From IMG/VR virus record IMGVR_UViG_3300021135_000003: DNA of 64,000 nucleotides. The stretch is one strand, 5' to 3'. This DNA comes from a virus. A program made the position numbers and the translations under genes. The number at the start of each line of letters is the position of its first letter. The stretch's first letter is position 1. Shown in pieces: positions 2,943 through 56,179 of this stretch. The notes beneath the pieces were generated by a model. That model saw only the letters and a program-made list of their open reading frames with translations. It had not been told where the DNA came from and ran no database searches.

Positions 2943-3116
2943 ATGAGTACATTAGATTTAGTGTCGGCGATTATTAATAAAGATGCAACTGGAATTGAAA
3001 CTGCATTTAATGACGCAATGGCGGAAAAGATTTCTACACGTTTAGATGATATGCGTACTGATGTTGCGCAATCAATGTTTAATCAAGAAGAACCAGTAAC
3101 CACTGAAGAAGAATGA
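2943..3116 (+). CDS. gp67: small acidic prohead core protein (gp67-like), 57 aa, absent from the ORF track
   Basis: Manual translation MSTLDLVSAIINKDATGIETAFNDAMAEKISTRLDD...EEE; AAGGAG RBS; located directly after the portal gene. Confidence 0.75.
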   Translation: MSTLDLVSAIINKDATGIETAFNDAMAEKISTRLDDMRTDVAQSMFNQEEPVTTEEE

Positions 3117-4808: not shown

Positions 4809-5825
4809 ATGTCAATCGAACAAAAAATCGCTGAAATTTTAGCAGAGTCTAAGAATAAACAATTAGATGAAGCCAAATTGGCTGGCGCTGAAACAGGTAA
4901 AAAAGATGTTACTGCTCATTCTGCAGGTGGCGATAAAGAGCCTATCCGTAAAGGTGATGCTGTTAAAGCAACTAAACCAGAAGATGAGCCAAGCAATGCT
5001 AAGAATGACGTGCAAACCCAAGAAGATGCTGAGAAAGGTCCAGAAGGTTCTATGAACCCACACAATGGCGACCAGACTCCAGTTCGCAAAGGTAACGCTG
5101 TTAAAGGTGTTAAGGAAGATTTAGATGCTATGTTTGGCACTGAAGATCTTTCAGAAGAATTTAAAGACAAAGCTGCTATGATTTTTGAAGCTGCAGTTAT
5201 GTCACGTGTAACTGCTGAAGTTGCACGTTTAGAAGAAGAGTTCGAAGCAAAAGTAGCTACTACTGTTGCTGAAGAAATTGAGGGTATTGTTGAACAAGTT
5301 GATGGATACCTCGGCTATATTGCTGAGCAGTGGATGACACAGAATGAAATCGCCCTTGAGCGTGGTATTAAGTCTGATATTTTAGAAAGTTTCGTTGATG
5401 GTCTGAAAGGACTATTCGAAGAACACTATATTGATGTTCCTGAAGAAAAGTATGACCTACTTGCCGACATGGAAGAAACAATTGGTGAACTTAAAGCGAA
5501 GATTGATGAACAAGTTGCTGCTAATATTGAGTTGACTAAATCAGTTAACGAAGCAAAGCGTAGCGAAATTGTTAAATCAATCAGTGAAGGTTTAACTGAC
5601 ACACAAGCTGAAAAGTTTGCTGGTTTAGTTGCTGAAGTTACTTTCGATGATGCTGAAACTTATGAATCTAAAGTTAAGACTTTACGTGAATCTTATTTCA
5701 CTACTAAAACTACATCAGGTGTAACATCTGTTGTAACTGATACTCCAGTTGAAGTTATCACTGAAGCTGGATCAAAGCGTACAGACCCAAAAATGTCTGC
5801 TTATCTATCAGCACTCAACAATTAA
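4809..5825 (+). CDS. gp22: major prohead scaffolding protein
   Basis: Acidic coiled coil with LSEEFKDKA..IFEAAV and VDGYLGYIAEQWM..NEIA; between gp21 and gp23. Confidence 0.95.
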   Translation: MSIEQKIAEILAESKNKQLDEAKLAGAETGKKDVTAHSAGGDKEPIRKGDAVKATKPEDEPSNAKNDVQTQEDAEKGPEGSMNPHNGDQTPVRKGNAVKGVKEDLDAMFGTEDLSEEFKDKAAMIFEAAVMSRVTAEVARLEEEFEAKVATTVAEEIEGIVEQVDGYLGYIAEQWMTQNEIALERGIKSDILESFVDGLKGLFEEHYIDVPEEKYDLLADMEETIGELKAKIDEQVAANIELTKSVNEAKRSEIVKSISEGLTDTQAEKFAGLVAEVTFDDAETYESKVKTLRESYFTTKTTSGVTSVVTDTPVEVITEAGSKRTDPKMSAYLSALNN

Positions 5826-39856: not shown

Positions 39857-41173
39857 ATGGTAAAAGTAATTGTAGCTGAACAGAAACACAATTGTGAAGA
39901 TCTTCTTGGTAAGTTTGTTGACGAATCACATTATGATCATCTTATCGAAGAAGATACTGATGTTTATATGCCACCACAATTTGGTGAAGATCCAATCTCA
40001 GAGAAACGAATTGTATTAAAGTTTAGGAAAAACTATTTTAGTAAAGAACAACAAGATGCCGCATATGTCGGACTTAGAGAAGCAGCGATTCGCACAGAGA
40101 ATCGTGGACTTGCTTCTGGTATCAAAGATGGCATTCTTGCCACAACTGAAGGTCGCGAGTGGGTCACAAACTACCAACAGGAAATGATGGATGCGTTGCT
40201 AAAGAATCGAAACTCTGCTCTTGATGAAGAAGATGTTATTGATGTTATTCGTGCCAAGTATCCTACTGAAACTGATAAGCGTATGGCAGGTGGTAGTGGT
40301 AAAAACAACGTATGGGTTATCTCACGTTTCCGTGGAACTAAGTTTGATTTTGAAGCATGGCTAGATACTATCAAACCACTTGGTCGTCAGAATCGTGCTG
40401 AGGCATGTGAAGATGTTATGGAAATGATTAGTACCACTACCTATGGTACTGCAGTTAATTCTGGTATCGCTGGTTGGTTCGATCGTTATCCTCGCATTCC
40501 TTATGGTCGTGCCACTTCCTATACTCGTGACAACTTTGATAAGTTTGTAATGTCATATCCATTCCTGCAGAATCTTGCTGAAGGATTTAAAAATCTTTTA
40601 CCTCAACGCTATGCTGCACAAATGAAAGCAGCAAACAAACTAGATCCAAGGTTCTTAGTTCCAGGAACACCATTCACAACAGTAACTGTTAATAAAACAT
40701 TTAGAACTGCGGCACATAGAGATGCTGGTGATTTGAATGAGGGTTTATCTAATCTGTTAACATTATCCAATGATGGTAATTACACTGGTGGATATTTGAT
40801 TGCTCCTGAGTATCGAATTGCAGTTAATCCACGTCCAGGAGATTTGCTTCTAATCAATAATCACGAAGTTATGCATGGCAATACACCTATTGTTTGCGCA
40901 GAAGGTTCTGAGCGTATATCATTGGTTGTGTATTTCCGTGAGAAAATGTTAGAACTTGGTTCTTTTGAATATGAAGACTGTCGTTATAATTTTGTTGAAC
41001 ATCGTAGACGTAATCACGAGCATCCAATGTGGCAAAAACTTTGGAATGGTGTATCAGAATCTATGTGGACTAGTCAAGAATGGTATGATTACTGCGAAGA
41101 AAAACTTGGTCGTGAGGAATTAATGAAATATCATCCAGAAGCAAATTCTTCTTCACTTGAGGATTTCTTTTAA
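39857..41173 (+). CDS. TET/JBP-family 2OG-Fe(II) DNA base dioxygenase
   Basis: PFTTVTVN..FRTAAHRDAGD (HxD), DLLL...HGNTPI and RISLVVYFRE motifs; located in the modification cluster. Confidence 0.8.
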   Translation: MVKVIVAEQKHNCEDLLGKFVDESHYDHLIEEDTDVYMPPQFGEDPISEKRIVLKFRKNYFSKEQQDAAYVGLREAAIRTENRGLASGIKDGILATTEGREWVTNYQQEMMDALLKNRNSALDEEDVIDVIRAKYPTETDKRMAGGSGKNNVWVISRFRGTKFDFEAWLDTIKPLGRQNRAEACEDVMEMISTTTYGTAVNSGIAGWFDRYPRIPYGRATSYTRDNFDKFVMSYPFLQNLAEGFKNLLPQRYAAQMKAANKLDPRFLVPGTPFTTVTVNKTFRTAAHRDAGDLNEGLSNLLTLSNDGNYTGGYLIAPEYRIAVNPRPGDLLLINNHEVMHGNTPIVCAEGSERISLVVYFREKMLELGSFEYEDCRYNFVEHRRRNHEHPMWQKLWNGVSESMWTSQEWYDYCEEKLGREELMKYHPEANSSSLEDFF

Positions 41174-41877
41174 TGTGTAGCGTTATTGGTGCTTTGATTC
41201 AGAATCCTACTGAAAAGGATTTTGAATCTATCCGTAAAGTATTTCTTGAGTCAAAGATTCGAGGAATGCACGCAACTGGTTTATCTTATATTAAAGATAA
41301 TAAGATTATTACATTTAAAGAAGCAGTTCCTGCAGATAAATTTATTCATTTAGATAATTTAGAGGAGATGGTCAATGACGATGGTAATCTTTACCTTATT
41401 GGTCACTGTAGATATTCTACTAGCGATTTATTGTATAATCAGCCGATAGCAAGCGAAACCCATTCTATTGTTCATAATGGAGTTATCACTCAAGAACTTC
41501 CAGAGAACTGGAGTAAGATATTTCATTATCCTTGTGAAACAAAGAATGATTCTGAATTAGTTTTACATTCTGATAATGCTCTTGGTGAATATCCAGATGC
41601 ATCTATGGCAGTTTGTGAGTTGTCACTAAAAAAAGAACTTACTGTTTTTAGAAATGGTAAACGTCCATTATATTTGACTTCTTTAGTAAATGGAGTTATA
41701 ATTACTTCTACTGCAGATATTCCTAAACGTGCAGGTATTAGAATGCCAGCAGTAGAAGTGCCAATGAATACTTACCTCACGTTTGATTCAAATATGACAA
41801 TGAATGTTAATCTTGTTAAGACTAACAAACCAGATTTACAAAAGGTAAACTATGAGACTGAAGAAATATCCAACTGA
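41173..41877 (+). CDS. class II (Ntn) glutamine amidotransferase
   Basis: N-terminal Cys2, RG.HATG, GHCRYST, NQP, HNGVI and DSE motifs. Confidence 0.88.
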   Translation: MCSVIGALIQNPTEKDFESIRKVFLESKIRGMHATGLSYIKDNKIITFKEAVPADKFIHLDNLEEMVNDDGNLYLIGHCRYSTSDLLYNQPIASETHSIVHNGVITQELPENWSKIFHYPCETKNDSELVLHSDNALGEYPDASMAVCELSLKKELTVFRNGKRPLYLTSLVNGVIITSTADIPKRAGIRMPAVEVPMNTYLTFDSNMTMNVNLVKTNKPDLQKVNYETEEISN

Positions 41878-42733
41878 TAAATTTACTTACGGAATGGAGA
41901 TAGAGTGGGGTGATGTGCCTCGCTCTTTTTCAATTCCAGAACATCTCGGAACTTGGGAACACTCAGAACGAGATATTATTAACTTAAGAGAGCCATATCA
42001 ATATGTCTGCGCTGACCCACTTGGTGAATCTCCTCCAGTCGGTGGGGAAATTAATACTAAACCGACTAAGACTTGGGAAGAGCAGGTTGATCGCTACTTT
42101 GAACTCAAACAGTTATTTGAGAAGGAAGGACACCCACCTACTGTTGGTGCTACTGCTCATACTCATATTCATTGCCGTGTACCGAATCTCCGAAATGATA
42201 TCAATGCTCTGAAGCGTTTGACAAAGTATATTAAAGAAAACCAACACCAAGCAGTTGAACACGTCTATGGTTACTTTGAACATAATCAAATGAAAGGTGC
42301 CAAAGGCGCAAAAATGTATTTGAAGTTTGATGGTGGTCGAACTCTGCCTGACTATATGGCTGATAACATTATTAATCTAGCGACTGACTTTGATTCATTC
42401 ATTAAGATGCACGCTGCAGGTAAAGATGGAGTATCAATGGGTCGCCCATTCCGCTACGCTATTAATATGTACGCACTGAAGCATATCGATACGGTAGAGT
42501 TTAGATTGTTCCGTGGTACAATGGATCGTACGGAACTTGAATCGTGTTTCCGATTTGTTCAAGACTTTCTTGATGCTGCGTTGAATACTGGTGAATCAGT
42601 AGTACAATTAATTTCAAATAATAATTATAAATTCCCTCCAATGATTTGGGATCTTCATCAGTTTATTGGTTGGGAGAAAACAAAACATCCAGAAGATCGT
42701 GGAGAAAAAGTAAGAACATATGTTGAAGTATAA
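41852..42733 (+). CDS. amidoligase (COOH-NH2 ligase, Amidoligase_2-like)
   Basis: TYGMEIE, GGEIN, HTHIH and RYAIN...TVEFR.F.GT motifs. Confidence 0.82.
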   Translation: MRLKKYPTDKFTYGMEIEWGDVPRSFSIPEHLGTWEHSERDIINLREPYQYVCADPLGESPPVGGEINTKPTKTWEEQVDRYFELKQLFEKEGHPPTVGATAHTHIHCRVPNLRNDINALKRLTKYIKENQHQAVEHVYGYFEHNQMKGAKGAKMYLKFDGGRTLPDYMADNIINLATDFDSFIKMHAAGKDGVSMGRPFRYAINMYALKHIDTVEFRLFRGTMDRTELESCFRFVQDFLDAALNTGESVVQLISNNNYKFPPMIWDLHQFIGWEKTKHPEDRGEKVRTYVEV

Positions 42734-43226
42734 AGTAATAGAAGATTGTGTATCAAGAGATTTGCAAAACAAATATTTGGAGATCTCAGAAGGTATACAT
42801 TGGACCTATAATAAAACTTGTATACATCCTTTAGATATTCCAATTCAGAATGAAACTACATTTGATGTTGGACAACTAACATGTAGAGTTCCAGAACACG
42901 ATTATAATTTGTTCCTCCCTCTTCTAGATCATTTTGAACAATACTCTAAAATTAATCGCATAAAATATAATTTGTTATGGAGATGTTCTGAAACAAATAA
43001 TAGACATACAAGTTTACATAAAGATGGTGATGACCAATGTATGAGTGCAGTATATTATGTTAATGATTCTGATGGAGATACCATCATAATTGATGGTGAT
43101 GATGAATATAGAATTAAACCAAAGAAGGGATCTATTCTAATATTTCCTGCGCATCTAATTCATGCCTCATCTAACCCATCAAATGCGTTTGAGAGAATTT
43201 GTATAAATTTGGTAGTAACAAAATGA
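42720..43226 (+). CDS. 2OG-Fe(II) oxygenase
   Basis: HKD, YYVNDSDGDT, HASSNP and RICIN motifs. Confidence 0.85.
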   Translation: MLKYKVIEDCVSRDLQNKYLEISEGIHWTYNKTCIHPLDIPIQNETTFDVGQLTCRVPEHDYNLFLPLLDHFEQYSKINRIKYNLLWRCSETNNRHTSLHKDGDDQCMSAVYYVNDSDGDTIIIDGDDEYRIKPKKGSILIFPAHLIHASSNPSNAFERICINLVVTK

Positions 43227-43774
43227 AATTACTAAATTGCCCACGTGCGGATTTTATCGCAGCAATAACTACAGACAAAGAAGATAACTTTGCTAAGACG
43301 TTTGTTGCCAAAGCAGATATGCAAGACCAATGGGATTATTGTATTGGCGCATTCGATGGTAATGAATTAACTGCTGCAATTATCACCACAATATCAAAGA
43401 CCAAACCTCATGTTGCAAACCTTCAACTGTTACATACATTTGCAAAACATAGAGGTAAAGGTTCAGCTCGATTACTTTGTGAAGATTCATTGAAGCGAGC
43501 AAGAGCCACTGGTGCTACATACTTCAGAGTATCTTCCGAGAAGACGGCAGTTGGTTTCTATGAACGATTGGGTTTTAAGTTTTGGGGTACTCAAAAGAGT
43601 GGTTGCCAATTATCCATATTCAGGATAAATGGAGATAATTATTCAGAAGCTGATTACGACTACTCCGATACAATTATCAACAAGGCTGTTAATCGCAAAG
43701 GTAAAGGTGGCTGTGTAACTCTGTTTAGTCTTGCAGAGGATCAGAAACAACTTGACTTTCATTCATTTTTGTAG
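43223..43774 (+). CDS. GNAT acetyltransferase
   Basis: HRGKGSAR acetyl-CoA loop and AVGFYERLGF motif. Confidence 0.88.
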   Translation: MKLLNCPRADFIAAITTDKEDNFAKTFVAKADMQDQWDYCIGAFDGNELTAAIITTISKTKPHVANLQLLHTFAKHRGKGSARLLCEDSLKRARATGATYFRVSSEKTAVGFYERLGFKFWGTQKSGCQLSIFRINGDNYSEADYDYSDTIINKAVNRKGKGGCVTLFSLAEDQKQLDFHSFL

Positions 43775-43780
43775 TATAAT
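43752..43780 (+). promoter_or_regulatory. sigma70-type promoter
   Basis: TTGACT-17 bp-TATAAT. Confidence 0.8.
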
Positions 43781-43799
43781 ATAATTTTGGGAACACACT

Positions 43800-44120
43800 A
43801 TGACACACTTGAGAGAAGAAAATTTGGCAGTTGTTACAAGAAGAATTGCTGAGGATGCATGGGTAACTAATCTTGATGGAACAAAATCAAGAGCAGTATC
43901 TTGGTGCAAATGCTGTAGGGTTCATAAACCTTTAAGTGCATTTTACTTAAAATCAAAGAGTACTAGAAAACATAAAAATGATGTTCGAGGATATTGTTGC
44001 ATTTGTTTTGATGAACAAAACAAAAAAGCAAAAGAAATTCGTGAAGAACGAAATGCAGTCAAACAATTGAATATTCTGATCAATGAATTAAAGATAGAAT
44101 TTGAGACTGCGAATCAGTAA
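43800..44120 (+). CDS. zinc-finger hypothetical protein
   Basis: CKCC..KPLSAFY...CCIC pattern. Confidence 0.7.
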   Translation: MTHLREENLAVVTRRIAEDAWVTNLDGTKSRAVSWCKCCRVHKPLSAFYLKSKSTRKHKNDVRGYCCICFDEQNKKAKEIREERNAVKQLNILINELKIEFETANQ

Positions 44121-44683
44121 TGAATTTCGAACATATTTTTCCATCAGTTATAGGTTATGAGATTAATAAAGATTTAACAGATAACATTTTGCTTATTGCA
44201 AAAGAATATCTTTCTGATGATTCTAAGATAACCTATGAATGGAATTATAAAAACACATATGGTAATATCTTAATAGATGATAAATTAAATTTTGTATATG
44301 AGAAGATAGCTGAACTATCAAATACATATTTGATAACCTCTAATATTAAACCACCAGAAAAATTAGAAATACAACTTTTCTTTAGTGAAATATACGGAAA
44401 CGACACTCATGTTAAACACTCTCATCCAGGAGCATTACTTTCTGGATTATTTTATTTGACTGTTCCAGATGATGCTGCTCCAATTATTTTTTATGATACG
44501 AGCCCACATTATGATTATATTCCGTATAATGCATTAAATCCATCTGATGACCGTAGGCAATATATTATAAATCCAAAAGAAGGTATGGTTCTAATATGGA
44601 ATTCTTGGTACCAGCATGAAGTTCCAAAATCAAATAGTATTAAACCAAGAATTACAGCAGTGTTTAATGTTGCTAGAAAATAA
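44120..44683 (+). CDS. putative 2OG-Fe(II) oxygenase (TIGR02466-like)
   Basis: HSHPGALLSGLFY, P.EG....W.S...HEV and RITAVFN motifs. Confidence 0.82.
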   Translation: MNFEHIFPSVIGYEINKDLTDNILLIAKEYLSDDSKITYEWNYKNTYGNILIDDKLNFVYEKIAELSNTYLITSNIKPPEKLEIQLFFSEIYGNDTHVKHSHPGALLSGLFYLTVPDDAAPIIFYDTSPHYDYIPYNALNPSDDRRQYIINPKEGMVLIWNSWYQHEVPKSNSIKPRITAVFNVARK

Positions 44684-45699
44684 TGGATTACAGACAACCT
44701 CAAAATAATAGAGAAGCGTTCATTCGCTGGTACGCATGGTCATTGAAGTATGATGACTGTGATCCAGCTGTTTGGTGCACGAACTATCTCAATAAGCGTT
44801 ACGAGCATAATGATGAACAACGTCTTTGGCTCGCTTGGCTTTACGGTAACACTTATCAACTACCAACTGCGTGGGTATTGATGAATGAATTTCCTGATTA
44901 TGAATTAGCAACAGTTGATAGAATTACGCAGTGGAACTCAACAAATTATAAACGATTACGTTACCAAACTGATACCAAGTGGAACAAGGGGCATCTCCCT
45001 GCCATGTTTGCTTCATATCAGCAATTTATTGGTAACAAAACTCAACGAGAAAGAATGGAAGGGTTTTATGGAGACAATGAAGAGACAAACTTTGATAACC
45101 TGTGGGAAAGCGTTAAGTCTGGGCTGCATAAGTTTGGTCGCTATTCCACTTGGTTTTATCTTCAGCATCTTAAGCATACCGCTGGTATTCTTATCAGCCC
45201 TACTAGTCTCATGCTGGATGATTATGATGGCTCTCGGTCTCATCGTAATGGATTATTATGCGCCCTCGGCAGACATTACGATATGGATAGAAAACTCACT
45301 GAACAAGAGTATGCAACTCTTGAGTCAGAAGCCAGATCTATTCTCATCGAAACCAAAGATAGATTCCCAGATTTGGAAACGCAAATAGATTTTTTTACAA
45401 TGGAAACCTGTCTGTGTTCGTTTAAGAAAATCTTTAGAGCACATCATGGACGTTACCTTGGTTACTACTTAGATCGTCAGGCTGAAGAGATTATTAAAGC
45501 AGAGGGTGATGGTTGGTATGGTATTGATTGGGATGTTCTGTGGCAAGCACGTGAAGAAACTATTGACTTACGTCTAGATCACAAAAGAGGAATCGATAAA
45601 GAAAAGTTTCCTGCATTTATAAATTCAGGTAAAATAGAAAACTTGGATTGGATGTTTGATGATGAAGAACCTATGTTAATTGGATTGGAGAATTTTTAA
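44683..45699 (+). CDS. amino acid:DNA transferase-like protein (aGPT-PPlase clade 2, HhH glycosylase-like fold)
   Basis: DCDP, EQRLWLAWLY, KFGRYSTWFYL (HhH-like) and METCLCSFKK motifs; near the P-loop kinase. Confidence 0.75.
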   Translation: MDYRQPQNNREAFIRWYAWSLKYDDCDPAVWCTNYLNKRYEHNDEQRLWLAWLYGNTYQLPTAWVLMNEFPDYELATVDRITQWNSTNYKRLRYQTDTKWNKGHLPAMFASYQQFIGNKTQRERMEGFYGDNEETNFDNLWESVKSGLHKFGRYSTWFYLQHLKHTAGILISPTSLMLDDYDGSRSHRNGLLCALGRHYDMDRKLTEQEYATLESEARSILIETKDRFPDLETQIDFFTMETCLCSFKKIFRAHHGRYLGYYLDRQAEEIIKAEGDGWYGIDWDVLWQAREETIDLRLDHKRGIDKEKFPAFINSGKIENLDWMFDDEEPMLIGLENF

Positions 45700-46151
45700 T
45701 GGCTATTACTAAAGGTCAAATGACTGGACTTACTGGTGCTATGTATGAAGATATGAATCCTGCTAGTGTTTCAATTTCAAATACTGGTGCTATTACTGGA
45801 ACTATTATTGGAGCAGCAGGTAGTACGATTACTACTGGAACAGGAATAAGTTCTATCTCAATTCGAACAAGTGCTGATGAAATCTTTGATAGATATTCTT
45901 TAAATGAGTTTCTTGTTGAGCATCGTGTTCAAGAATTTGAACTTATGAAACTCCGTGAAACCACTGTTGACTATGCTGATGTTATTAAAAATAATCTAGC
46001 AAAGACTGCTTCTAAAGAAATTATCAAGAAAATGACCTTCACAAAGAAACATGAGATTGATAGTGATACTCATTCATTCCGTGGACGTGTTTGGGTATTT
46101 ACGAAAGATGAACTAAACAAAATGATTGAGGAGATCAGAAATGGCATTTGA
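45699..46151 (+). CDS. hypothetical protein with Thr/Gly/Ser-rich N-terminus
   Basis: Coupled ORF with GGAG RBS. Confidence 0.7.
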   Translation: MAITKGQMTGLTGAMYEDMNPASVSISNTGAITGTIIGAAGSTITTGTGISSISIRTSADEIFDRYSLNEFLVEHRVQEFELMKLRETTVDYADVIKNNLAKTASKEIIKKMTFTKKHEIDSDTHSFRGRVWVFTKDELNKMIEEIRNGI

Positions 46152-46749
46152 AGAACGTATCGGCGCAACTGATATTATTACATTCGAAAGAACTACCATG
46201 GAAACAAAAGAACGAAAGATAGTTGCTGTCGGTGGATCTCCTGGAACTGGAAAGACTACGTTATTCCGTAAATATATGGAAGATAAACAGTGGATCGGAG
46301 TTGAGCCAGCAAAATTAGTATCAACAATGTATAATACCGAACGAGATCTTTATATCCTTGGTAAATACGAAGAGGGTGAAACCTTTGCTGGAACCGATCG
46401 CCTTTCTATGGCTGTTCAACCACCTCTTCAAGAATGGGTCGCTTCCCATAACTGCAATATCCTTTTCGAGGGAGATCGGGTTTTCAACCAATCATTCCTA
46501 GAGTTCTGCATGGGTCTCCCAAATACCAAGCTAGAAGTGGTATTTCTAAAGGCTCCCAAAGATATTTTAGAACAACGCTATAAAGATCGTGGATCTGACC
46601 AGTCAGAACAATTCCTAAGAGGAAGAGAAACTAAATATAGTAACTTGATGTCTAATTTTGAACTTATGCCATATATTACTGAGTTTGTAAACACTAACTT
46701 AGAGGAGCAGGGGAAGGTTCTTGCATTTTTGGAGAAGCAGTTTAGTTAA
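46141..46749 (+). CDS. P-loop nucleotide/DNA kinase (5-hmU DNA kinase-like role predicted)
   Basis: GGSPGTGKT, LGKY....FAGTDRLSMAVQP, FEGDR and R..RGS.Q motifs. Confidence 0.78.
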   Translation: MAFEERIGATDIITFERTTMETKERKIVAVGGSPGTGKTTLFRKYMEDKQWIGVEPAKLVSTMYNTERDLYILGKYEEGETFAGTDRLSMAVQPPLQEWVASHNCNILFEGDRVFNQSFLEFCMGLPNTKLEVVFLKAPKDILEQRYKDRGSDQSEQFLRGRETKYSNLMSNFELMPYITEFVNTNLEEQGKVLAFLEKQFS

Positions 46750-47476: not shown

Positions 47477-47484
47477 TATAAATA
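47477..47484 (+). promoter_or_regulatory. T4-type late promoter
   Basis: Exact TATAAATA at the head of the internal-protein cluster. Confidence 0.75.
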
Positions 47485-47515: not shown

Positions 47516-48859
47516 ATGAAAGATTATAGACAACTAATCAAAGAACTACCGAGTAAAACGATAGTTCTAGCCTGTGGAAAGTTTAACCCTCCGACTATCG
47601 GACATGAACTTCTTATAAAGGCTGTCAAATCTCTAGCCGAGCAGAAGAATGCCAGCTACGCCATTTATGCGTCCGATCTAAGCGACGCTAAAAAGAATCC
47701 TCTAATAGTAGAAAAGAAAGTACAGTATTTAAATCTGTTATTTCCGAATACACATTTTTCTACATACTCAGATAATATTAATGAAACAGTTTCTAAACTA
47801 AAAGAAACTTATCGAAAAGTTATCGTTGTTACAAGCGCAGATAAAGTAGCATCACTAAAGAAATCTTTGAAAGAAGCTACAGTTATATCAGCAATGGATA
47901 AAGATCCAGACAGCGAAGATACTACTCGTACTTATGCAGTTAAAGGTTTATACGAAGAGTTTAAAAAGAATTTACCTTCAGCAATTCGTGAAATTGATTC
48001 TCGTAGATTAATGAATGATTTAAGAGTTGGTTCAGGATTAGAACCAATCAAAGAAGAAATTAAATTAGTCAAAGATAATCTACGTGAACAATATTTCCGT
48101 GGTGAAATATTTAATGTTGGTGAACACGTTGAGTCAGATGGTCAAGAATATGAAATTATTAAACGTGGTTCTAATCATTTGTTGCTAAAAGAATCAACAG
48201 GTAAATTAGTAAGCAAATGGATTCAAAATGTTAAATTAATAGAAACCGATATGCAAAAGAAAAAATTAAAATCATTTAGAACTATCGCAGAAACTTACGA
48301 CCATCACCACGAAGAAGCGATGCAGCATAAAGATAATGCAGAGAAATCTAAAACTGCTGGTAACATGGGTGGTTATCATGCACATATGGTTAATCATCAC
48401 GACTCAATGGGTCGCTGGCATGAATCTAAAGGTAGACATTCTTCTGCTGAGCGTGAGTGGGAAAAAGCTGAACAACATCATAGCGAAGGATTAAAACATC
48501 CTTATGTTTCTGAAAGTGTTATTAAAGAAGAAACTAAAATTGAACACCATGCTGACCACAAGTTAATTGACCATGGTCATGCTGTTCAAATTAAAATTGG
48601 TAAAGAACACCACTCTAAGATTGGTAAACTACAACACGGGCAACGCCATTCTTTTAAAGAAAAAGATGGAGAGAATCACTGGGTTGCTGTAAAGCGTGGT
48701 GATCGTTTACATTTTTTACCTAATCATTTAGATACACAGACTATGTCTTCAATGTCTTGTCATATCGGTGCTGCTGACTGGAATGGTCCATCAGGTGCTG
48801 CTCCTCAAGATGGAAGACAACCATTTGATCCAATGAGTAGTTCGAATGCTGACGTTTAA
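47516..48859 (+). CDS. cytidyltransferase-like (HxGH) protein with His-rich C-terminal modules
   Basis: GKFNPPTIGH, KKNPL and REQYFRGEIFNVG motifs; CTS-like N-terminus MKDYRQLIKE. Confidence 0.75.
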   Translation: MKDYRQLIKELPSKTIVLACGKFNPPTIGHELLIKAVKSLAEQKNASYAIYASDLSDAKKNPLIVEKKVQYLNLLFPNTHFSTYSDNINETVSKLKETYRKVIVVTSADKVASLKKSLKEATVISAMDKDPDSEDTTRTYAVKGLYEEFKKNLPSAIREIDSRRLMNDLRVGSGLEPIKEEIKLVKDNLREQYFRGEIFNVGEHVESDGQEYEIIKRGSNHLLLKESTGKLVSKWIQNVKLIETDMQKKKLKSFRTIAETYDHHHEEAMQHKDNAEKSKTAGNMGGYHAHMVNHHDSMGRWHESKGRHSSAEREWEKAEQHHSEGLKHPYVSESVIKEETKIEHHADHKLIDHGHAVQIKIGKEHHSKIGKLQHGQRHSFKEKDGENHWVAVKRGDRLHFLPNHLDTQTMSSMSCHIGAADWNGPSGAAPQDGRQPFDPMSSSNADV

Positions 48860-49238
48860 AGACTATGTTTCTGATAGAGAAGCAATTGATGAGGCAACAA
48901 CTTCATCAAGAATGCATGCTAAGTTTAGATTAAGAACTAGCAAAACTAAACGTAAACAAAGAAGTAAAATAGCAACACATACTGTTGCTAATGGTAAGAA
49001 AGCTGAAAGCAGAGCCAGAAGAATGGCTATTAGAATGATGAAGAAAAGAATGTTGCGTGGTAGAAAGTTACGTAATCTAGCACCAGATGAAAAAGCAAGT
49101 ATTGAAAAGCGTATGAAAACAAAAATGGCGCAGATTAAACAAATGACTTCAGGTCTAGTTGCGACAGTTAGAAGAATTGAAAAATCAAGATTAACCCATG
49201 GGGAAGTTTCTCGTGGAAAAACTAGAAGAGTATTTTAA
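48846..49238 (+). CDS. highly basic putative internal head protein
   Basis: MLTFKDYV...IDEA leader followed by an Arg/Lys/Met-rich body. Confidence 0.7.
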   Translation: MLTFKDYVSDREAIDEATTSSRMHAKFRLRTSKTKRKQRSKIATHTVANGKKAESRARRMAIRMMKKRMLRGRKLRNLAPDEKASIEKRMKTKMAQIKQMTSGLVATVRRIEKSRLTHGEVSRGKTRRVF

Positions 49239-49685
49239 ATGGATGAATTAAAAACCGCAATTAAAGTATTGTTGGCAAATGCTACTGTCATGTATTATAA
49301 AACACACCAATTCCATTGGAACGTAGAAGGTATTTTATTTACACAATATCATGCATTCTTTGAAGAAGTTTACGTTGATGTATATAATTCTATTGATCCT
49401 ACTGCAGAACTGCTACGTAAGATTGATGACTATGCGCCAGTAAGTATTGATGAGTTATACAAATATAAAACAATCGAAGAAGAATCAACTAGATTAATAC
49501 TTCTTTCTGATATTTTGCAAAAGTTAATCGAAGCAAATCAAGAAGTGATTAACAGCCTAAATAAAGTGTTCGAACTAGCAAATGCAAATAAACAACAAGG
49601 TATTTGTAATTTTATTGCTGACCGAATCGATACACATCAGAAACATGGATGGTGGTTAAAAACATCCGCAAAGAAAATAGGTTAA
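49239..49685 (+). CDS. dps: Dps/ferritin-like protein
   Basis: HQFHWNVEG..F..YH.FFEE.Y, D..AE and H.KHGW motifs. Confidence 0.9.
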   Translation: MDELKTAIKVLLANATVMYYKTHQFHWNVEGILFTQYHAFFEEVYVDVYNSIDPTAELLRKIDDYAPVSIDELYKYKTIEEESTRLILLSDILQKLIEANQEVINSLNKVFELANANKQQGICNFIADRIDTHQKHGWWLKTSAKKIG

Positions 49686-49686
49686 T

Positions 49687-50880
49687 ATGAAATCATTCCA
49701 AACATATTTAAAAGAAGAAGCCGAAGGTGCTAAGTTAAAGCACATTACGCATCCTGAAGATCGTCCATTAATGCATGGTCACGAAGGATTTGAACATGCT
49801 CATGGTGCTTTAATGCACGCACATGAACATATGAAAGCTGGTAAGAACAATAGTAACCTTACCACTAAGTATGATGGTTCTCCTGCTGTAGTTTTCGGCA
49901 CTCATCCTAAGAATGGTAAATTCTTTGTTGCTTCTAAATCAGCATTTAATAAAGAACCAAAGATTAATCATACTGATGCTGACATTGACAAGAATCATGG
50001 CCACGCTCCAGGTCTTGCCACTAAATTAAAAGCTGCGTTACATCACCTACCTAAAGTTACACCAAAAGGTAAAGTATATCAGGGTGATATTATGCACTCT
50101 GAGGGTGATGTTAAACACGATAAAAAATCTGGTAAAGCATCCTTTACTCCTAACACTATTACCTACACTGCGCATGGTGAAGAAGCCAAGAAAGCTACAA
50201 AAGCAAAAGTAGGTGTTGCTGTTCATACTCAATATCATGGTAAAGATATTCAATCATTATCTGCTCATCATGAAGTTAATCATCACGAATTTGGTCAGCA
50301 TCCTGATGTTCACCACCATGATGCCAGCTATGATACTAGCACAGCAAATCATTCTAAACAAAATCAAGATGAGTTTCATAAACATATGGCAGCTGCCAAA
50401 GCAGTTCATGACACTCATGGCGACAAAATGTATAATGCTATTCACCCAGCGCATAGTGGTGAACATGGTCATCTAGCAACATACATTAACTCAACTGTTA
50501 GAAATAACACTACTCCAAACGTAAAAGATTTTAAATCTCATCTTGAAGCCCACCATGCTAAGCAAGTTGCTGGTGTTAAGACAGAAAAAGCCCAAGAACA
50601 AAAACGTGCAAAAGGTAAAGAAGAAATTGCCCACGTTGAGAAAAACAAAGGGCATTATGAGAATACATTAACTGCTCATAATCATTTGGCAGCAGCAAAG
50701 AATACATTAGTTAAATCTTTAGAAAGTGGTCATAGTAATTATGAACACCACATCGAAGGTAAAGAATCCAAACCAGAAGGTTTTGTTATTAATCATGAAC
50801 ACAATGGTAAAACAGAACCATCTAAACTTGTGAATCGTGCTGAGTTCGCAAGATCAAATCTTTTAAAGGTGCGTAAATGA
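49687..50880 (+). CDS. His-rich DUF6267-like protein with ligase-type nucleotidyltransferase motifs
   Basis: KYDGSP (motif I), YQGD, EGFVI and KLVNR; N-terminus MKSFQTYLKEE. Confidence 0.7.
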   Translation: MKSFQTYLKEEAEGAKLKHITHPEDRPLMHGHEGFEHAHGALMHAHEHMKAGKNNSNLTTKYDGSPAVVFGTHPKNGKFFVASKSAFNKEPKINHTDADIDKNHGHAPGLATKLKAALHHLPKVTPKGKVYQGDIMHSEGDVKHDKKSGKASFTPNTITYTAHGEEAKKATKAKVGVAVHTQYHGKDIQSLSAHHEVNHHEFGQHPDVHHHDASYDTSTANHSKQNQDEFHKHMAAAKAVHDTHGDKMYNAIHPAHSGEHGHLATYINSTVRNNTTPNVKDFKSHLEAHHAKQVAGVKTEKAQEQKRAKGKEEIAHVEKNKGHYENTLTAHNHLAAAKNTLVKSLESGHSNYEHHIEGKESKPEGFVINHEHNGKTEPSKLVNRAEFARSNLLKVRK

Positions 50881-51947
50881 AATCATTTAAATCATTCTTA
50901 AACGAAGAAATTTATTTCGAAGATAATCTAACAGAAGCTGCTGACGATGCTTCTAAAGAAGGTGGCGTTTCCAATAATACTAAAGGTGTTCTTCATGAAC
51001 TTTTAGTTGGCAAACATTTAAACAATGGTCAGCATATGTCTAAACATGAAAATGCTGAAGGTGAAACACCACAACAAGCGCATGATCGTTTAAAGAAACA
51101 GATTCATCCTAATGATTATAAACGTATTGAAGCAAATGCCAAAAGCGCAGCTGCAGATATTCATAAGAACATCCAAGCAACTCATCCAGGTCATGTAATT
51201 CATGGAGTTCATTGGACTTCAAAACCTGGAGATACAGAAAAAGTAACTGGTGTTAAAGCAACTCAGAAACAAGACTCTTCAGATATCTATATTTCTACTC
51301 ACCACCCTAAGAAACCTAAAGATGAAACCCATCATGGTTATAGTTTAAAGGTTAGTGATAAATCTAGTAAGAATGTTCCATCATCAAGTCTTGGTATGAA
51401 ATCAAGTGGTGAAAAGGCGCAATCGCTTTATAAAGAACACCAAAAGAAAATTAAAACGATGCATCCTGAGTTAGAAGGTAAGAACGAAGAAGCACGTAAA
51501 GAATGGGCACAAAAGAACCCAGAGAAACACAATCAAGTTAAAGCTGAAAATAAAAAACTATTGGCCAATGTTGCGCATCACCATGCTGCTGAATTACAAC
51601 ATCATTTAGATTCTGGTAATCATGAACACGTAGTTAATCATATCCGTGATGTTCTTGCAGCTAAAAGTACTCCAGCTGCAGAAGCTGGTAAAGCAAACTT
51701 CTCTAAACATACTACATACCAAACTGCAAAGGGTGTTCAACATCATACAGCAAACCCAGCTCAAGATTATGAACATATTCTAAAAGATCATAAGAATATT
51801 AAAGTAAAAGCAAGTGGTGGCTCTGTTCATTTTAGTCACACTGATCCAAAAACTGGTAAAGAAACAAAGTTTGCTTCTCAAGCGCATAAGTTTGATTCAC
51901 AAAGCGATCCATTATCAACAATTAAAAGCGCAGGTAAAGCTGTATGA
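50877..51947 (+). CDS. His-rich putative PD-(D/E)xK-like nuclease, internal head protein
   Basis: GVLHE, SDIYI and GYSLK motifs; N-terminus MKSFKSFLNEE. Confidence 0.55.
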   Translation: MKSFKSFLNEEIYFEDNLTEAADDASKEGGVSNNTKGVLHELLVGKHLNNGQHMSKHENAEGETPQQAHDRLKKQIHPNDYKRIEANAKSAAADIHKNIQATHPGHVIHGVHWTSKPGDTEKVTGVKATQKQDSSDIYISTHHPKKPKDETHHGYSLKVSDKSSKNVPSSSLGMKSSGEKAQSLYKEHQKKIKTMHPELEGKNEEARKEWAQKNPEKHNQVKAENKKLLANVAHHHAAELQHHLDSGNHEHVVNHIRDVLAAKSTPAAEAGKANFSKHTTYQTAKGVQHHTANPAQDYEHILKDHKNIKVKASGGSVHFSHTDPKTGKETKFASQAHKFDSQSDPLSTIKSAGKAV

Positions 51948-52363
51948 TTTCCTTTAAAGAATACTTAGAAGAAGCCAAGCGTGGATTGTGGGATAACATC
52001 CATGCTAAACAAGAAAGAATTAAGAATGGTTCTGGTGAACATATGCGCAAACCAGGAAGCAAAGGTGCTCCAACTGATGCAGCATTAAAAGCGTCTCAAA
52101 CAAATGAAGCAGCAGTTGACGCAAAAGGATATAAGTCATCTACTGGTGGGCTAACACAAAAAGGTCGTGATCACTATAATGCACAAGGTGGTCATTTAAA
52201 GGCTCCAGTTACTACACCACCTTCAAAGTTAAAGGCTGGTAGTAAAGCTGCCAATCGTAGAAAATCTTTTTGTGCACGTATGAGTGGCGTTGATGGTCCA
52301 ATGAAGAAACCTAATGGTGAACCAACTCGTAAAGCACTAGCATTAAGAAAATGGAATTGTTAA
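51944..52363 (+). CDS. basic DUF6321-like putative internal head protein
   Basis: RRKSFCARM...RKALALRKWNC; N-terminus MISFKEYLEE. Confidence 0.7.
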   Translation: MISFKEYLEEAKRGLWDNIHAKQERIKNGSGEHMRKPGSKGAPTDAALKASQTNEAAVDAKGYKSSTGGLTQKGRDHYNAQGGHLKAPVTTPPSKLKAGSKAANRRKSFCARMSGVDGPMKKPNGEPTRKALALRKWNC

Positions 52364-52364
52364 A

Positions 52365-55235
52365 ATGATTACCTATAACGAATTAAAAGAAAAATGTACT
52401 TGCTGGACAGGTTACAAACGTAAACCTGGAACTGCACCATGCGCTGAAGGAAGCTGTGTGAAAGAAGAACTAGAAAAACACCACGCATTAGCGTTTGGTC
52501 GTATGAACCCAATTACTTCTGGCCATGAGGCAGTAGTTAATAAACTTCATTCAGTTGCCAAAGAACATAATGCTACTCATAGTCTTGTAGTTTCTCATAG
52601 CCAAGATTCTAAGAAGAATCCTTTATCTGCTGAACAAAAAGTTAATCACGCTAAACACGCATTCCCTGGAACAAATGTAACTGCTGCTAGTAAAGAAGCA
52701 CCTACAATCCTCCACCATGCTGCAGCTGCTCATGCTGCTGGCGCAACTCACTTACATGTAGTTGCTGGTTCTGATCGCCATGAAGAGATGCATAATCTTC
52801 TTCATAAATATAATGGTCAGAATGCTGCTCATGGCAATTATAATTTTAAAAAGATAACAGTACATTCTTCTGGTGAACGTGATCCAGATGCAGAAGGAAC
52901 TACTGGTATCTCTGCAAGTAAAATGCGTGAACATGCTGCTTCTGGAAACAAAAAAGCATTCCACGCTGGAGCACCATCAAAAATGAAACCAGAACACAAG
53001 GACGCCATGTATAACGATGTGCGTAAAGGTATGAACTTAAAAGAAGAAACTATGGATCAACAAGACGATCACGCTAAACAACTAAAGCGTTTTAAAGACC
53101 AAATGACCAAAGGTAATGGTCCAAAAATAGATCCTGAACTTGCTTTAGATAAAAAAGAAAAAGCAGCTATGGGTGTTAAAGAACATCTAGATGCTAACGC
53201 TGGCGCAGGTGCTTGGATTAATGATTTTATTTCTTCAACTAATCCACGTTTTAATAATAAGTCTAAATCAGAACGTCGCAAAATGGCTATTGGTGCTTAC
53301 ATGGCTGCCAAAGCAAAAGGTATGAAAGAAGAATTTGAAATTGAAGAAGGATATGATAAAACTTCTGCAATGCATAAAGCTGCTAAACAAGCTGCTCAAG
53401 GTTTTGATGGTAAAGCAATCTACCATCCAAATGGTCACGCAGAAGTAAGAATGCGCGCAATGGTTCATGGTCATAGTACTGTTAATCCGCATGGAACAGT
53501 TTTAATGTCTGGTGAGGAAAAAGCCAAACGTGCTGCTAAAGAACATGGTGGCAAAGCTGAAGGTAGTATAGTTCATTTTAAAGAAGGTACTCTTCAAGGT
53601 AACGTAGCTGGTGGTGATGCAATGAACACAACTACTTCTGCTCCATCAGATAATAAAATGCCAGCAGGTAGTGTTAAGAAAGTTAAAGGATTCAAATTTT
53701 TTAATGGCACAAATGAACCAAATACTCAAATGGCAGTTAAAGAAGAAACTCTAGATGAACGTAATAAAGCCAATGCTCTTATGCGTAAAACTATGGACGC
53801 TTCTCGTGGTGCTCGTTACAAATTAAACAATCCAGTTCCTGCTGCTGAACCAGAACATAAAACTGCCCAAGCGCATAATAAAGCAATTGGTCGTGCGCTA
53901 CGTAATGAAGGTACCATAGAAACTTCAACTGGAAGAGTTCATAAAAAAGATGAATGGGAAGGATATCCTTCTACATTTAAAGATAAAGACGATAACAAGT
54001 TACTAAAAGGTAATGAACGTAGTCGAATGAATAAAGCAATCCCTCCAAACGATAAGTTAAAGGAAGCTGCTACTGGTAATCCAGGAAATGGTTACCATGG
54101 TGCTGTTCAAAGTCCAGATGAGAAATATGAAGCAACACATAAACATGTTAAGAACTTAACTGACGCTGATGATAAGACAGTTAAACATTATCTAGATTCT
54201 GCTCATGGTCGCCATTTGGCTGGTCGTGAAGAAGATCATGAGTATATTAAAAAGGACTTTAAGAAATTTAAAAAGTATTATCGTCCAGAAATGCATGAGT
54301 CAACTGAGATGGCTAGATTAGATCTTCAAACTATTATTAACAATGTTAATAGAGTTAAACCAATGGTTGATAAAGAAACTGATCTACCAGATTGGATTGA
54401 ATCTAAGATTACTATGGCTGCAGATTATATCAAGTGCGTAAGCGATTATATCGAAGCAGCAGAACAAATCGGAACTGGATTAGAAGAAGAAACTGCTCCA
54501 GTTGGTAAAGTTCAAAAAATTGATAAAAAAACCGCAGTAATAAAATTACATCCTAATGGTGCAGCTTCTGACACCGATGAGGGTTGGGCTAAACCAAAAA
54601 TTAAAGAGGGAACTATGAAATCATATAAAGATTTTTTACAAGGATTAGATGAGGCTTCTAAAAAGAAACCAGCATGGCTTCTTGATGCTGAATTAAATGC
54701 AGAGAAGAAAGAAGGCAAACTTAAAGAAGCAAAAGAAGGCAGTGCTGAAGATAAAAAAGAAGATAAAGCTGGTATGAAGCGTACTGGGATGACTGCCAAA
54801 GAATGGGAAAAGTCTGCTGAAGATAAAAAAGAAGATATGCAGGAAGCTAATTGGATCAAGGGTGCTATTAAACATCCAGGCGCAATGACTGCTGCTGCAA
54901 AACGTGCTGGCGAAACTAACGCTGAGTACGAACAGCAACATAAACACGATTCTGGTAAAGCAGGTCGTCGTGCTCGTCTAGCATTAACTTTAAAGAAAAT
55001 GCATGAAGAACAGATTAATGAATATGAAGCAGATAAGAATGGTGTTTATCGTCATACTAAGAAAGCCACTTACGGAACATCTTATGTTGATCCAGAAGGT
55101 GCTGACGAAACTGCTGCTGATCTAAAGAAAAAAGAAAAGAAAACAGCTGGACGTAAAGCAGGTTCAGGTGCTGGTGTATACAAGCCACGTGCAACAATGT
55201 CCAAGTTAAAACAACTTGGCGCAACTTATAAATAA
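52365..55235 (+). CDS. large modular protein: cytidyltransferase domain plus many short modules (putative polyprotein)
   Basis: FGRMNPITSGH, KKNPL, AGSDR, GERDPD and ISASKMR motifs, then repeated (L/I/V/M)xE boundaries. Confidence 0.8.
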   Translation: MITYNELKEKCTCWTGYKRKPGTAPCAEGSCVKEELEKHHALAFGRMNPITSGHEAVVNKLHSVAKEHNATHSLVVSHSQDSKKNPLSAEQKVNHAKHAFPGTNVTAASKEAPTILHHAAAAHAAGATHLHVVAGSDRHEEMHNLLHKYNGQNAAHGNYNFKKITVHSSGERDPDAEGTTGISASKMREHAASGNKKAFHAGAPSKMKPEHKDAMYNDVRKGMNLKEETMDQQDDHAKQLKRFKDQMTKGNGPKIDPELALDKKEKAAMGVKEHLDANAGAGAWINDFISSTNPRFNNKSKSERRKMAIGAYMAAKAKGMKEEFEIEEGYDKTSAMHKAAKQAAQGFDGKAIYHPNGHAEVRMRAMVHGHSTVNPHGTVLMSGEEKAKRAAKEHGGKAEGSIVHFKEGTLQGNVAGGDAMNTTTSAPSDNKMPAGSVKKVKGFKFFNGTNEPNTQMAVKEETLDERNKANALMRKTMDASRGARYKLNNPVPAAEPEHKTAQAHNKAIGRALRNEGTIETSTGRVHKKDEWEGYPSTFKDKDDNKLLKGNERSRMNKAIPPNDKLKEAATGNPGNGYHGAVQSPDEKYEATHKHVKNLTDADDKTVKHYLDSAHGRHLAGREEDHEYIKKDFKKFKKYYRPEMHESTEMARLDLQTIINNVNRVKPMVDKETDLPDWIESKITMAADYIKCVSDYIEAAEQIGTGLEEETAPVGKVQKIDKKTAVIKLHPNGAASDTDEGWAKPKIKEGTMKSYKDFLQGLDEASKKKPAWLLDAELNAEKKEGKLKEAKEGSAEDKKEDKAGMKRTGMTAKEWEKSAEDKKEDMQEANWIKGAIKHPGAMTAAAKRAGETNAEYEQQHKHDSGKAGRRARLALTLKKMHEEQINEYEADKNGVYRHTKKATYGTSYVDPEGADETAADLKKKEKKTAGRKAGSGAGVYKPRATMSKLKQLGATYK
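55227..55234 (+). promoter_or_regulatory. T4-type late promoter
   Basis: Exact TATAAATA. Confidence 0.7.
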
Positions 55236-55264: not shown

Positions 55265-56179
55265 ATGGCACTATGGGGAAATCAAGACACATTAGCGTCT
55301 TCACCAAAAAATATCGCTAGAAAGGCAATTTTTGATGCCACTAGCACTAGCATTGTAAATACAACTAATAAAACAATCAGCTTAGTTAATTCTACTACTA
55401 ACTTTACTAATGGTGATGCCGTTCTGTATTCTGTTAATGGTGGAACAGCATGTACTGGTCTAACAGATGCAACTGTTTATTATGTTCGTCGCGTAGATTC
55501 TTTCAACGTAGCGTTATATGATACTCTTGCTCATGCTGTTGCTGGCGGTGCAACTGGTTTGGTTAATATTAGTGCAGTTGGTACTGGTACTACTCATTCT
55601 TTACAGCGTTATGCTAACACTGCAAATACTAATTCTGGTAGTGGTAAAGCAGGTAATAACACTTCAGTATTCTTAGTTACTAAAGAAGAAGCCCAAACAC
55701 CAGAAAATAGAGCAAAAGGAATTAAAGGTCCAGGCTGGTATAATTATCTAACTTATACTGCTGCTGACAGTTCAGTTCGCAATAAAGTAGAAAAACTTAT
55801 TGCTTTTGAATCTGAAGTAACTGAAACATCTTCAAACTACGTAACTACTAATGATCCATTAGTTTCTGGTTTAATTACTATCGGTACACAACCTTCTAGC
55901 GTTGCTGGTGCTTCTACACCATACACTGGTACATTCGCAGTTGCTGCGACTATTACTGGTAACGGAACTATTGGTTACCAATGGCAAGTTTCTACAGATG
56001 GCGGAACTACTTACACTAACGTAACTAACGCTGGCGTATATAGTGGCGCAACAACTAATACTCTAACATTGACTGCTGCTGCTAAAGCAACATACAATAA
56101 CTACAAGTATCGTGCTGTTCTAAGTGCTACTGACTACACAACTCAGACTTCTGCTGCTGCAACTCTAGTTTACGCTTAA
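55265..56179 (+). CDS. virion structural/decoration protein with C-terminal Ig-like domain
   Basis: MALWG start; Thr/Ala/Gly-rich; YQWQVSTDGG...TLTL...YKYR Ig-like pattern; AAGGAG RBS. Confidence 0.8.
   Translation: MALWGNQDTLASSPKNIARKAIFDATSTSIVNTTNKTISLVNSTTNFTNGDAVLYSVNGGTACTGLTDATVYYVRRVDSFNVALYDTLAHAVAGGATGLVNISAVGTGTTHSLQRYANTANTNSGSGKAGNNTSVFLVTKEEAQTPENRAKGIKGPGWYNYLTYTAADSSVRNKVEKLIAFESEVTETSSNYVTTNDPLVSGLITIGTQPSSVAGASTPYTGTFAVAATITGNGTIGYQWQVSTDGGTTYTNVTNAGVYSGATTNTLTLTAAAKATYNNYKYRAVLSATDYTTQTSAAATLVYA

Follow-up and report, generated by a model that had tools for sequence, protein, structure and literature searches.

We analyzed a 64,000-nucleotide (nt) stretch of viral DNA (IMG/VR record IMGVR_UViG_3300021135_000003), hereafter called the window, the source of which is a marine T4-like myovirus. 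The analysis focused on an open frame at 52365–55235 that encodes a protein of 956 amino acids (aa), designated P0001; this gene, the other leader-bearing genes, the late-promoter-like motif upstream of them, and the protease and scaffold genes are on the plus strand. We conclude with moderate confidence that the protein is a capsid-targeted cargo polyprotein that would be cut by a gp21-type prohead protease at exposed (V/L/I/M)-x-E linkers. We consider it very likely that the protein is packaged into the head and, given packaging, likely that it is cleaved at multiple sites. We infer the packaging of the protein, each of the cleavages, the retention and injection of the products, and the roles of the modules.

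The initial annotation of this sequence had described the region behind the N-terminal enzyme domain (the tail) as a string of short, unrelated modules separated by hydrophobic-x-Glu motifs (Φ-x-E). All 16 motifs that it listed were found, at residues 225, 271, 320, 326, 405, 458, 463, 565, 643, 706, 746, 761, 786, 825, 879, and 884, and three further Φ-x-E sites occur in the protein, at residues 7, 32, and 187. The module length given there, 20–60 aa, was too narrow, because the predicted fragments range from 5 to 102 aa. A search for homologues of the protein identified more than 1600 proteins of 525–1500 aa with mosaic tails, and a search with the tail only gave 1753 representative clusters with parts in common with it. 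When the ends of the BLAST segments were located in comparisons with 260 tail-sharing relatives, 37.6% of them lay within 3 residues of a Φ-x-E site, against 14% expected by chance (2.7-fold), and no excess was seen for the controls Φ-x-D, Φ-x-K, Φ-x-A, and Φ-x-G. We then considered near-unique insertions and deletions (indels) of ≥ 15 aa with conserved flanks in all pairs of 45 full-length homologues. Φ-x-E was present within 3 residues of both junctions in 167 of these 329 indels, compared with 8.5 at random, and each of the controls Φ-x-D/K/Q/N/A/S/T/G gave at most 4 of 329. In a five-sequence alignment of close relatives, each large indel was a block consisting of a module plus Φ-x-E, as in NLKE|...NVKE|ET, RNE|GTIE...KLKE|AA, and MHE|STEM...GLEE|ET. 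Thus, in all three comparisons, the module borders coincide with the motifs, a check that the initial annotation had itself proposed. As in a virus polyprotein, independent units were found with a protease-type motif between them.

The junctions have a consistent composition. A logo of 239 junction contexts showed V/L/I/M at P3, K at P2 (51%), E at P1, E/G/A at P1′, and T at P2′ (26%), giving the consensus (V/L/I/M)-K-E|(E/G/A)-T. The junction Glu residues are the best-conserved residues in the tail, with a mean identity of 0.67 vs 0.28 for the 52 other tail Glu residues (p = 1e-4). In the AlphaFold model, 13–14 of the 15 Φ-x-E sites in the tail were in or beside linkers between helical modules, where the predicted local distance difference test score (pLDDT) was < 50. 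Throughout the family, the variable middle lies between an N-terminal part and a C-terminal module (∼50 residues) that are both conserved. The expectation that modules would occur as stand-alone open reading frames (ORFs) or in shuffled order was borne out in part: in related phages, modules recur in the neighboring gene and in shorter leader-bearing genes at the same locus, which contain subsets of the modules without the enzyme, but shuffled order was confined to a minority (15 of 164 homologues were non-collinear in module order). Cassette gain, loss, and replacement in a kept order dominate over shuffling. Many of the short “stand-alone” matches start in the middle of a module and are likely to be truncated ORFs from short contigs, and the examples counted here are leader-bearing ones with DNA context.

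The second body of evidence is the N-terminal leader, MITYNELKE (52392 is the first base after it; 52365–52391), which ends in L-K-E and has the family consensus MITYKELKEK. In the T4 record (NC_000866), ipII and ipIII start with MKTYQEFIAE|A and ipI starts with MKTFKEF.... According to a review, ten residues of this type are enough for a protein to be loaded into T4 heads, and gp21 cleaves after L/I-x-E (PMC9026906). Like the T4 sequence MKTYQEFIAE, MITYNELKE is a leader of ∼10 residues that ends in L/I-x-E, a likeness that is one of sequence. Six neighboring genes, starting at 47516, 48846, 49687, 50877, 51944, and 52365, all begin with M-[KIL]-[STD]-[FY]-x-x-[FYL]..., and each leader closes in Φ-x-E. 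The same genes with the same leaders are present in three syntenic metagenome loci (L013–L015), and the enzyme homologues of the phages Melnitz, HTVC008M, P-TIM40, and S-SZBM1 also carry such leaders (e.g., MRFRQFIIE|A in S-SZBM1). The Melnitz and HTVC008M homologues, of 650 and 596 aa, respectively, are of the long-tailed type. The T4 late-promoter-like motif TATAAATA is located at 47477–47484, 32 nt before the first of the leader-bearing genes; the window contains four copies, three of which are just upstream of genes, and the motif overall is not enriched there.

The use of Φ-x-E in other proteins of the window is a separate line of evidence. Past the leader, there was no Φ-x-E site in the proteins at 49687, 50877, 48846, and 51944, against 4.6 + 3.0 + 1.2 + 0.5 = 9.3 expected, and the first two were the only significantly Φ-x-E-depleted proteins among the 71 tested. 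The gp22-type scaffold and a core protein (at 3113), by comparison, were enriched in the motif. Such a pattern would be expected if the motif were hazardous to proteins that have to survive inside the prohead. The initial annotation had attributed the punctuation of the 956-aa protein to two of its neighbors as well. This holds for the protein at 47516, in which LIE, IAE, VSE, and IKE are present and the overall Φ-x-E count is 16 vs 8.6 expected; the protein at 51944 has the motif in its leader (FKE and LEE) but nowhere beyond it.

The processing enzyme is presumed to be the product of 4113–4766. As had been annotated, this is a gp21-type prohead protease: it matched phrog_207 (1e-76), shares 37% identity with T4 gp21, and keeps the GEL.HP and GVSSR blocks of that protein. 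Profile matches also identified a portal, a gp22-type scaffold, and a gp23-type capsid protein in the window. The capsid protein has ∼62% identity to its counterparts in cyanophage P-TIM40, Pelagibacter phage HTVC008M, and Methylophilales phage Melnitz, and L-F-E|A-A closes its N-terminal propeptide region, a position analogous to that of T4 L-T-E|A in columns that are unaligned. Homologues of the enzyme domain have been detected in virions: the cytidylyltransferase S-SZBM1_140 was found in CsCl-purified virions with liquid chromatography–mass spectrometry (PMC9146016), and similar detections were reported for S-CREM2, S-CBWM1, and S-SCSM1 (PMC10665884). The virion detection of the cytidylyltransferase rests on 2–3 peptides (PMC9146016, PMC10665884).

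On this basis, we propose the following course of events. The gene would be transcribed late, together with the five neighboring genes that bear the same type of leader. During prohead assembly, the MITYNELKE leader, which is of the T4 MKTYQEFIAE type, would dock the chain onto the scaffolding core, and the activated gp21-type protease (4113–4766) would then cut after the Glu of (V/L/I/M)-x-E in exposed linkers. The leader would be removed, and the HIGH-family nucleotidyltransferase and about a dozen small, mostly helical or disordered modules would be freed. The pieces retained in the head would exit with the DNA at infection, as do T4 IPI–III and Alt. By T4 precedent, in which most of the core fragments are lost from the head (PMC9026906), the smallest pieces may instead escape from the prohead as scaffold fragments do. 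Because each cassette would carry its own cut site, it could be gained, lost, or replaced without harm to its neighbors, which is our proposed explanation of the hypervariable middle of the family. A broader, more tentative, and less probable suggestion is that marine T4-like phages may keep a recombining library of small head-delivered effector peptides (functional analogues of IPI*). These would be strung together after an injected enzyme, set free by the prohead protease, and re-assorted between genes and phages, and a conserved in-frame internal start would give a second leader-bearing product.

Several observations weigh against the reading of the protein as a multiply cut cargo polyprotein. 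The number of bare [LIVMF]-x-E motifs in the protein is at chance level (19 vs 14.2 expected, p = 0.10), so this count was dropped as evidence. Narrower forms of the motif were enriched (Φ-[KDEQHN]-E, 18 vs 5.9; Φ-x-E-[EGAS]-T, 6 vs 0.3), and these forms were picked after looking at the sequence; because of this post hoc choice, we relied on tests that are independent of the choice of motif. In the paralogue at 47516, many Φ-x-E sites lie within the predicted enzyme fold, so the motif by itself is no proof of cleavage. The 329 indel events come from related sequences and are not independent of one another, and low pLDDT is no proof of disorder. The residue at P3 is most often Val (41%), whereas T4 gp21 is described as cutting after L/I-x-E, and a local specificity of the protease was assumed here. 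As for the virion data, the homologue detected with mass spectrometry is a protein of 362 aa that has no modular tail, and one of the two papers warns that co-purification is possible (PMC10665884). For the 956-aa protein and its long-tailed homologues, packaging, cleavage, and ejection are predictions from sequence.

Three other explanations were considered. The leader might bring the chain into the prohead while the tail is sacrificial, like the scaffold and core proteins; the tail would help to build or fill the prohead and be chopped, its fragments would leave, and the enzyme would be the sole cargo delivered. The two most Φ-x-E-enriched proteins in the window are indeed the gp22-type scaffold (19 vs 10.7 expected) and the core protein at 3113 (12 vs 5.3 expected), and ∼55% of the tail of the 956-aa protein has a pLDDT < 50 in the model and is rich in Lys, Glu, and Ala. 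The exit of most T4 core fragments from the head (PMC9026906) and the redundant cut sites in phiKZ-type propeptides point the same way. An assembly role should be conserved, yet the module content varies between phages with ∼87% identical flanks. Single modules are also well conserved, several have confident helical folds, and small genes carry them behind leaders of their own, a pattern that resembles the diversity of the T-even internal proteins and not that of a scaffold. We regard a sacrificial tail as unlikely.

It is also conceivable, and in our judgment quite unlikely, that the protein enters the head and is later ejected as a single long multi-domain chain from which the leader alone is removed, the Φ-x-E motifs being linker ends or recombination microhomologies (AAA GAA GAA ACT). 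Near-identical junction codon strings of 11–12 nt do occur at several borders, T4 gp21 ignores L/I-x-E buried in folded proteins, and polyvalent proteins, which have 2–15 domains, are believed to accompany the DNA, some of them uncut (PMC5512222). Against this, P3 varies among V/L/I/M/F beside a nearly invariant Glu at P1, which points to selection acting at the peptide level and not at that of the DNA. The sites are in predicted exposed linkers, the leaders end in the same motif and by T4 precedent are cleaved there, and the complete avoidance of the motif by leader-bearing neighbors would make no sense unless the motif were harmful within the head. Finally, the protein might be a cytoplasmic metabolic enzyme outside the virion, with a low-complexity tail and coincidental resemblances in leader and motif. 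Cyanophage papers usually class the cytidylyltransferase as an auxiliary metabolic gene (PMC9146016), and the small number of peptides behind the virion detections leaves some room for this. Set against it are the six clustered leaders conserved across loci, the late-promoter motif upstream, the ∼20-fold excess at indel junctions, the avoidance of Φ-x-E in the neighbors, and the detection of homologues in the virion proteomes of four cyanophages in two papers (PMC9146016, PMC10665884), and we consider this explanation very improbable.

Among known systems, a cargo polyprotein of this kind comes closest to the T4 internal proteins and Alt. The internal proteins are the classic example of proteins that accompany phage DNA to disable host defenses, and they are known as single small genes of coliphages. 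The window shares with IPI, IPII, IPIII, and Alt the type of leader (∼10 residues, MK[TS][YF].[ED]F...E|A), the presence of a gp21-type protease and a gp22-type scaffold in the phage, the clustering of hypervariable accessory genes, and, in the case of Alt, an enzyme as cargo. The T4 internal proteins differ in being single units, each encoded by a separate gene with a leader of its own, whereas here one chain comprises an enzyme, 12–15 unrelated cassettes with Φ-x-E borders, and a second, internal leader; beyond the leader, they have no sequence similarity to the 956-aa protein, the cargo role of which is read from its sequence. The T4 core proteins gp22, gp67, and gp68 also have many L/I/V-x-E sites per chain, at which gp21 fragments them, but they are conserved assembly proteins with mostly discarded fragments, whereas the tail studied here is a patchwork of modules that are conserved independently and can be exchanged.

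In concept, the published class nearest to the 956-aa protein is that of the polyvalent proteins (Iyer et al., 2017; PMC5512222), in which many unrelated domains are joined in one polypeptide encoded in the late or virion region, and for which delivery together with the DNA and processing into individual units have been proposed (PMC5512222). They have their own peptidase (MPTase) and characteristic enzymatic and anti-restriction domains. Neither a built-in peptidase nor the polyvalent domain repertoire was found in the 956-aa protein with Pfam (E ≤ 0.1) or PHROG; in contrast to polyvalent proteins, it consists mostly of tiny modules and seems to depend on the head-maturation protease, which would act at a short motif that recurs along the chain. 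In phiKZ, 201phi2-1, and SPN3US, a gp21-related protease likewise cuts head and inner-body proteins after the Glu of a three-residue motif, and many head-internal or ejected proteins are processed; the motif is S/A-x-E, however, what is removed are the propeptides of individual proteins, and a cassette array has not been reported there. The cyanophage virion cytidylyltransferases S-SZBM1_140 and S-CREM2 ORF154, both detected in virions with mass spectrometry, have a homologous enzyme domain (∼38% identity) but are ∼290–360 aa long and have no long cassette tail, and the papers are silent on a targeting leader or processing. In the literature, we found no description of a cassette polyprotein punctuated by sites for a head protease. 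If the proposal is correct, abundant T4-like phages of the ocean package far more varied payloads, as cassette arrays disassembled by the head protease. It would also supply a sequence rule (a leader plus Φ-x-E borders) for spotting the injected proteins of uncultured phages, explain the recurrent “cytidylyltransferase” in cyanophage virion proteomes, and yield a large set of small candidate host-takeover or anti-defense modules.

We also mapped the modules along the protein. A small Cys-rich CWTGYK hairpin module (residues 10–34; 52392–52466), defined by homologue comparison, lies between LKE and VKE. It is missing as a unit from P0069, which reads LKE|ELGG, and occurs without the enzyme in P0161 and P0254; its four Cys residues are not all retained across the homologues. 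It is followed by the enzyme domain (residues 35–227; 52467–53045), which ends in N-L-K-E. By its predicted structure and profile matches, this domain is a cytidylyltransferase-like HIGH-family nucleotidyltransferase with a PPAT/NaMNAT-type fold. It matched phrog_3041 (1e-57), whereas the scores for PF01467 (20.1 bits; cut-off, 21) and TIGR00125 fell short of their cut-offs. The AlphaFold model was confident for residues 35–225 (pLDDT ∼90), and Foldseek comparisons of the model with PPAT/NaMNAT chains gave target-normalized TM-scores of 0.5–0.65 at a probability of 1.0 and an E-value of ∼1e-3. PITSGH (residues 49–54) and ISASKMR (residues 182–188), which we take to be the (H/T)xGH and ISxxxxR nucleotide-binding motifs, respectively, are invariant across the 45 homologues.

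The tail begins with two cassettes, residues 228–273 and 274–322 (53046–53330), each closed by Φ-K-E and bordered by indels in close homologues. The second, a helical “WINDFISSTNPRF...” module, stands directly behind the leaders in P0148 and P0234. Next are a replaceable cassette (323–407), which is absent or replaced by unrelated sequence in P0002, P0014, and P0004, and a conserved cassette (408–460), which is invariant among the five sequences of the close-relative alignment (A2); this pair occupies 53331–53744 and was delimited by alignment, and the conserved cassette is predicted to be disordered (pLDDT < 50). The most widespread module, a helical one at residues 461–515, and an inserted cassette that ends in L-K-E (516–567) occupy 53745–54065, as judged from the alignment and the ends of the high-scoring segment pairs (HSPs), 33 of which end at residue 515 and 27 of which start at residue 461. 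The inserted cassette is missing from P0004, P0013, and P0014, precisely between RNE and LKE. Two helical modules with M-H-E between them follow at 54066–54488: residues 568–645, which match phrog_8020 (pLDDT ∼90), and residues 646–708 (pLDDT ∼70), which are also found in Synechococcus phages and in a neighboring gene of L013. In the model, a four-residue low-confidence linker (643–646) falls exactly at MHE|S.

A further cassette, residues 709–748 (54489–54608), ends in an invariant I-K-E, of which K747 and E748 are invariant in the 45 homologues. Behind the internal leader described below, the cassettes at 764–886 (54654–55022) include a segment that is replaced in P0004 (789–827) and a helical phrog_20603-like module (828–881), which has a stand-alone relative of 61 aa (P0244). 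The C-terminal module (887–956; 55023–55232; GR..G...GVYKPR...) is conserved family-wide, with invariant or near-invariant columns at 903–956 in the 45 homologues. In the AlphaFold model, helical modules were predicted at 277–319, 463–514, 575–642, 647–703, and 796–881, with low-confidence stretches between them. A query-anchored alignment of 145 HSP fragments was poorly aligned and was not used for folding; the 45 full-length homologues were used instead. Pfam recognized no family in the 730 residues after the enzyme, PF01467 being the only match at E ≤ 0.1 in the whole protein, and no informative match to the tail modules came from Pfam, NCBIfam, the ESM Atlas, or a sequence search of the PDB. 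The PHROG matches of the tail are to families without an assigned function. In tblastn searches of the modules against isolate phages, only two were matched, in Synechococcus and Thermus phages.

The initial annotation had also pointed to a second leader-like sequence inside the protein. This is present as MKSYKDFLQGLDE at residues 751–763 and, with the preceding GT, forms the element GT-MKSYKDFLQGLDE (residues 749–763; 54606–54653), in which GAGG (54606–54609) stands 5 nt before an ATG at 54615. Of 262 relatives, 98 have exactly one MKS[YF]K[ED]F-type element, whereas shuffled sequences have none; it always follows Φ-K-E-[EG]-[NTS], and different modules lie behind it in different proteins. 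The internal leader is no chance relic. The Glu before it uses the rare codon GAG in the window and in L013–L015 (the ORF has 12 GAG vs 73 GAA), which places GAGG 5–6 nt ahead of the ATG, and in the relative P0122, the C-terminal 206 aa are encoded by an overlapping ORF of their own. Given the single conserved element, the conserved GAGG, and the separate ORF in P0122, an in-frame second start at the internal leader is plausible; T4 gene 21 is also annotated with an in-frame second start. The idea that the K-E-E/G-T junctions in general are translated relics of ribosome-binding sites was rejected, because their codons are mostly AAA GAA GAA ACT and are not Shine–Dalgarno-like, with the exception of the junction at 746–751. 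In L013–L015, P0010, P0016, P0034, and others, the internal leader is followed by KLIGKQ.K.DKN.NG..D..D, which has the look of an EF-hand-type calcium-binding loop; in the 956-aa protein, another module takes this place.

The leader-bearing cluster starts with a paralogous nucleotidyltransferase (47516–48859; phrog_3041, 3e-31), which has the leader MKDYRQLIKE and a His-rich, Φ-x-E-punctuated tail and shares 28% identity with residues 31–242 of P0001. It is followed by a basic protein of 130 aa with the leader MLTFKDYVSDREAIDE (48846–49238), a DUF6267 protein (49687–50880; PF19782, 1.5e-106) with the leader MKSFQTYLKE, a leader kept in L013–L015, and a protein of 356 aa with the leader MKSFKSFLNE (50877–51947), which has no Φ-x-E past residue 45. 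The gene directly upstream of the polyprotein gene (51944–52363) combines the leader MISFKEYLEE, a “GLWDNIHAK” module, and a DUF6321 module (PF19846). Its first module is found inside the polyproteins of other phages (P0049 residues 421–471, 84% identity), and its counterparts in relatives are 95, 139, 273, or 384 residues long or are split into two leader-bearing genes; the one in L013 contains the equivalent of module 646–708. A Dps/ferritin-like gene without a leader (49239–49685; PF00210, 2.5e-21) lies in the middle of the cluster and at the same place in the syntenic loci L012–L015. The DUF6267 protein contains 49 His in 397 aa; its cyanophage homologues have no T4-type leader and start with MAKNTHLEHLED..., and DUF6267 is fused to a cytidylyltransferase domain in phrog_455 and several metagenome proteins. 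Dispersed His enrichment was seen in several leader-bearing proteins (47516–52363; 30/447, 49/397, and 34/356), and His makes up ∼10% of the enzyme domain of the 956-aa protein.

Among the head genes, the gp22-type scaffold (4809–5825; phrog_237, 2e-80), itself rich in Φ-x-E, is the presumed docking partner of the leaders. Small ORFs at 3113–3658 and 2943–3116, between the portal and the protease, are in the position of T4 genes 67 and 68; those tested in a PHROG search gave no match. The first of them encodes the 181-aa core protein mentioned above, the most Φ-x-E-enriched protein in the window, which has the N-terminus MKYYELK. Downstream of the cluster, a second TATAAATA (55227–55234) lies in the last codons of the polyprotein gene and is followed by AAGGAG and then by a gene (55265–56179) that matches phrog_613 (head protein) and has the N-terminus MALWGN, an arrangement kept in L012–L015. 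Upstream of the leader cluster, at 39857–46749 of the window, the syntenic loci carry PF18724 (ADDT, per the Pfam listing), a P-loop nucleotide kinase, and other enzymes, which fit a putative DNA-hypermodification cluster.

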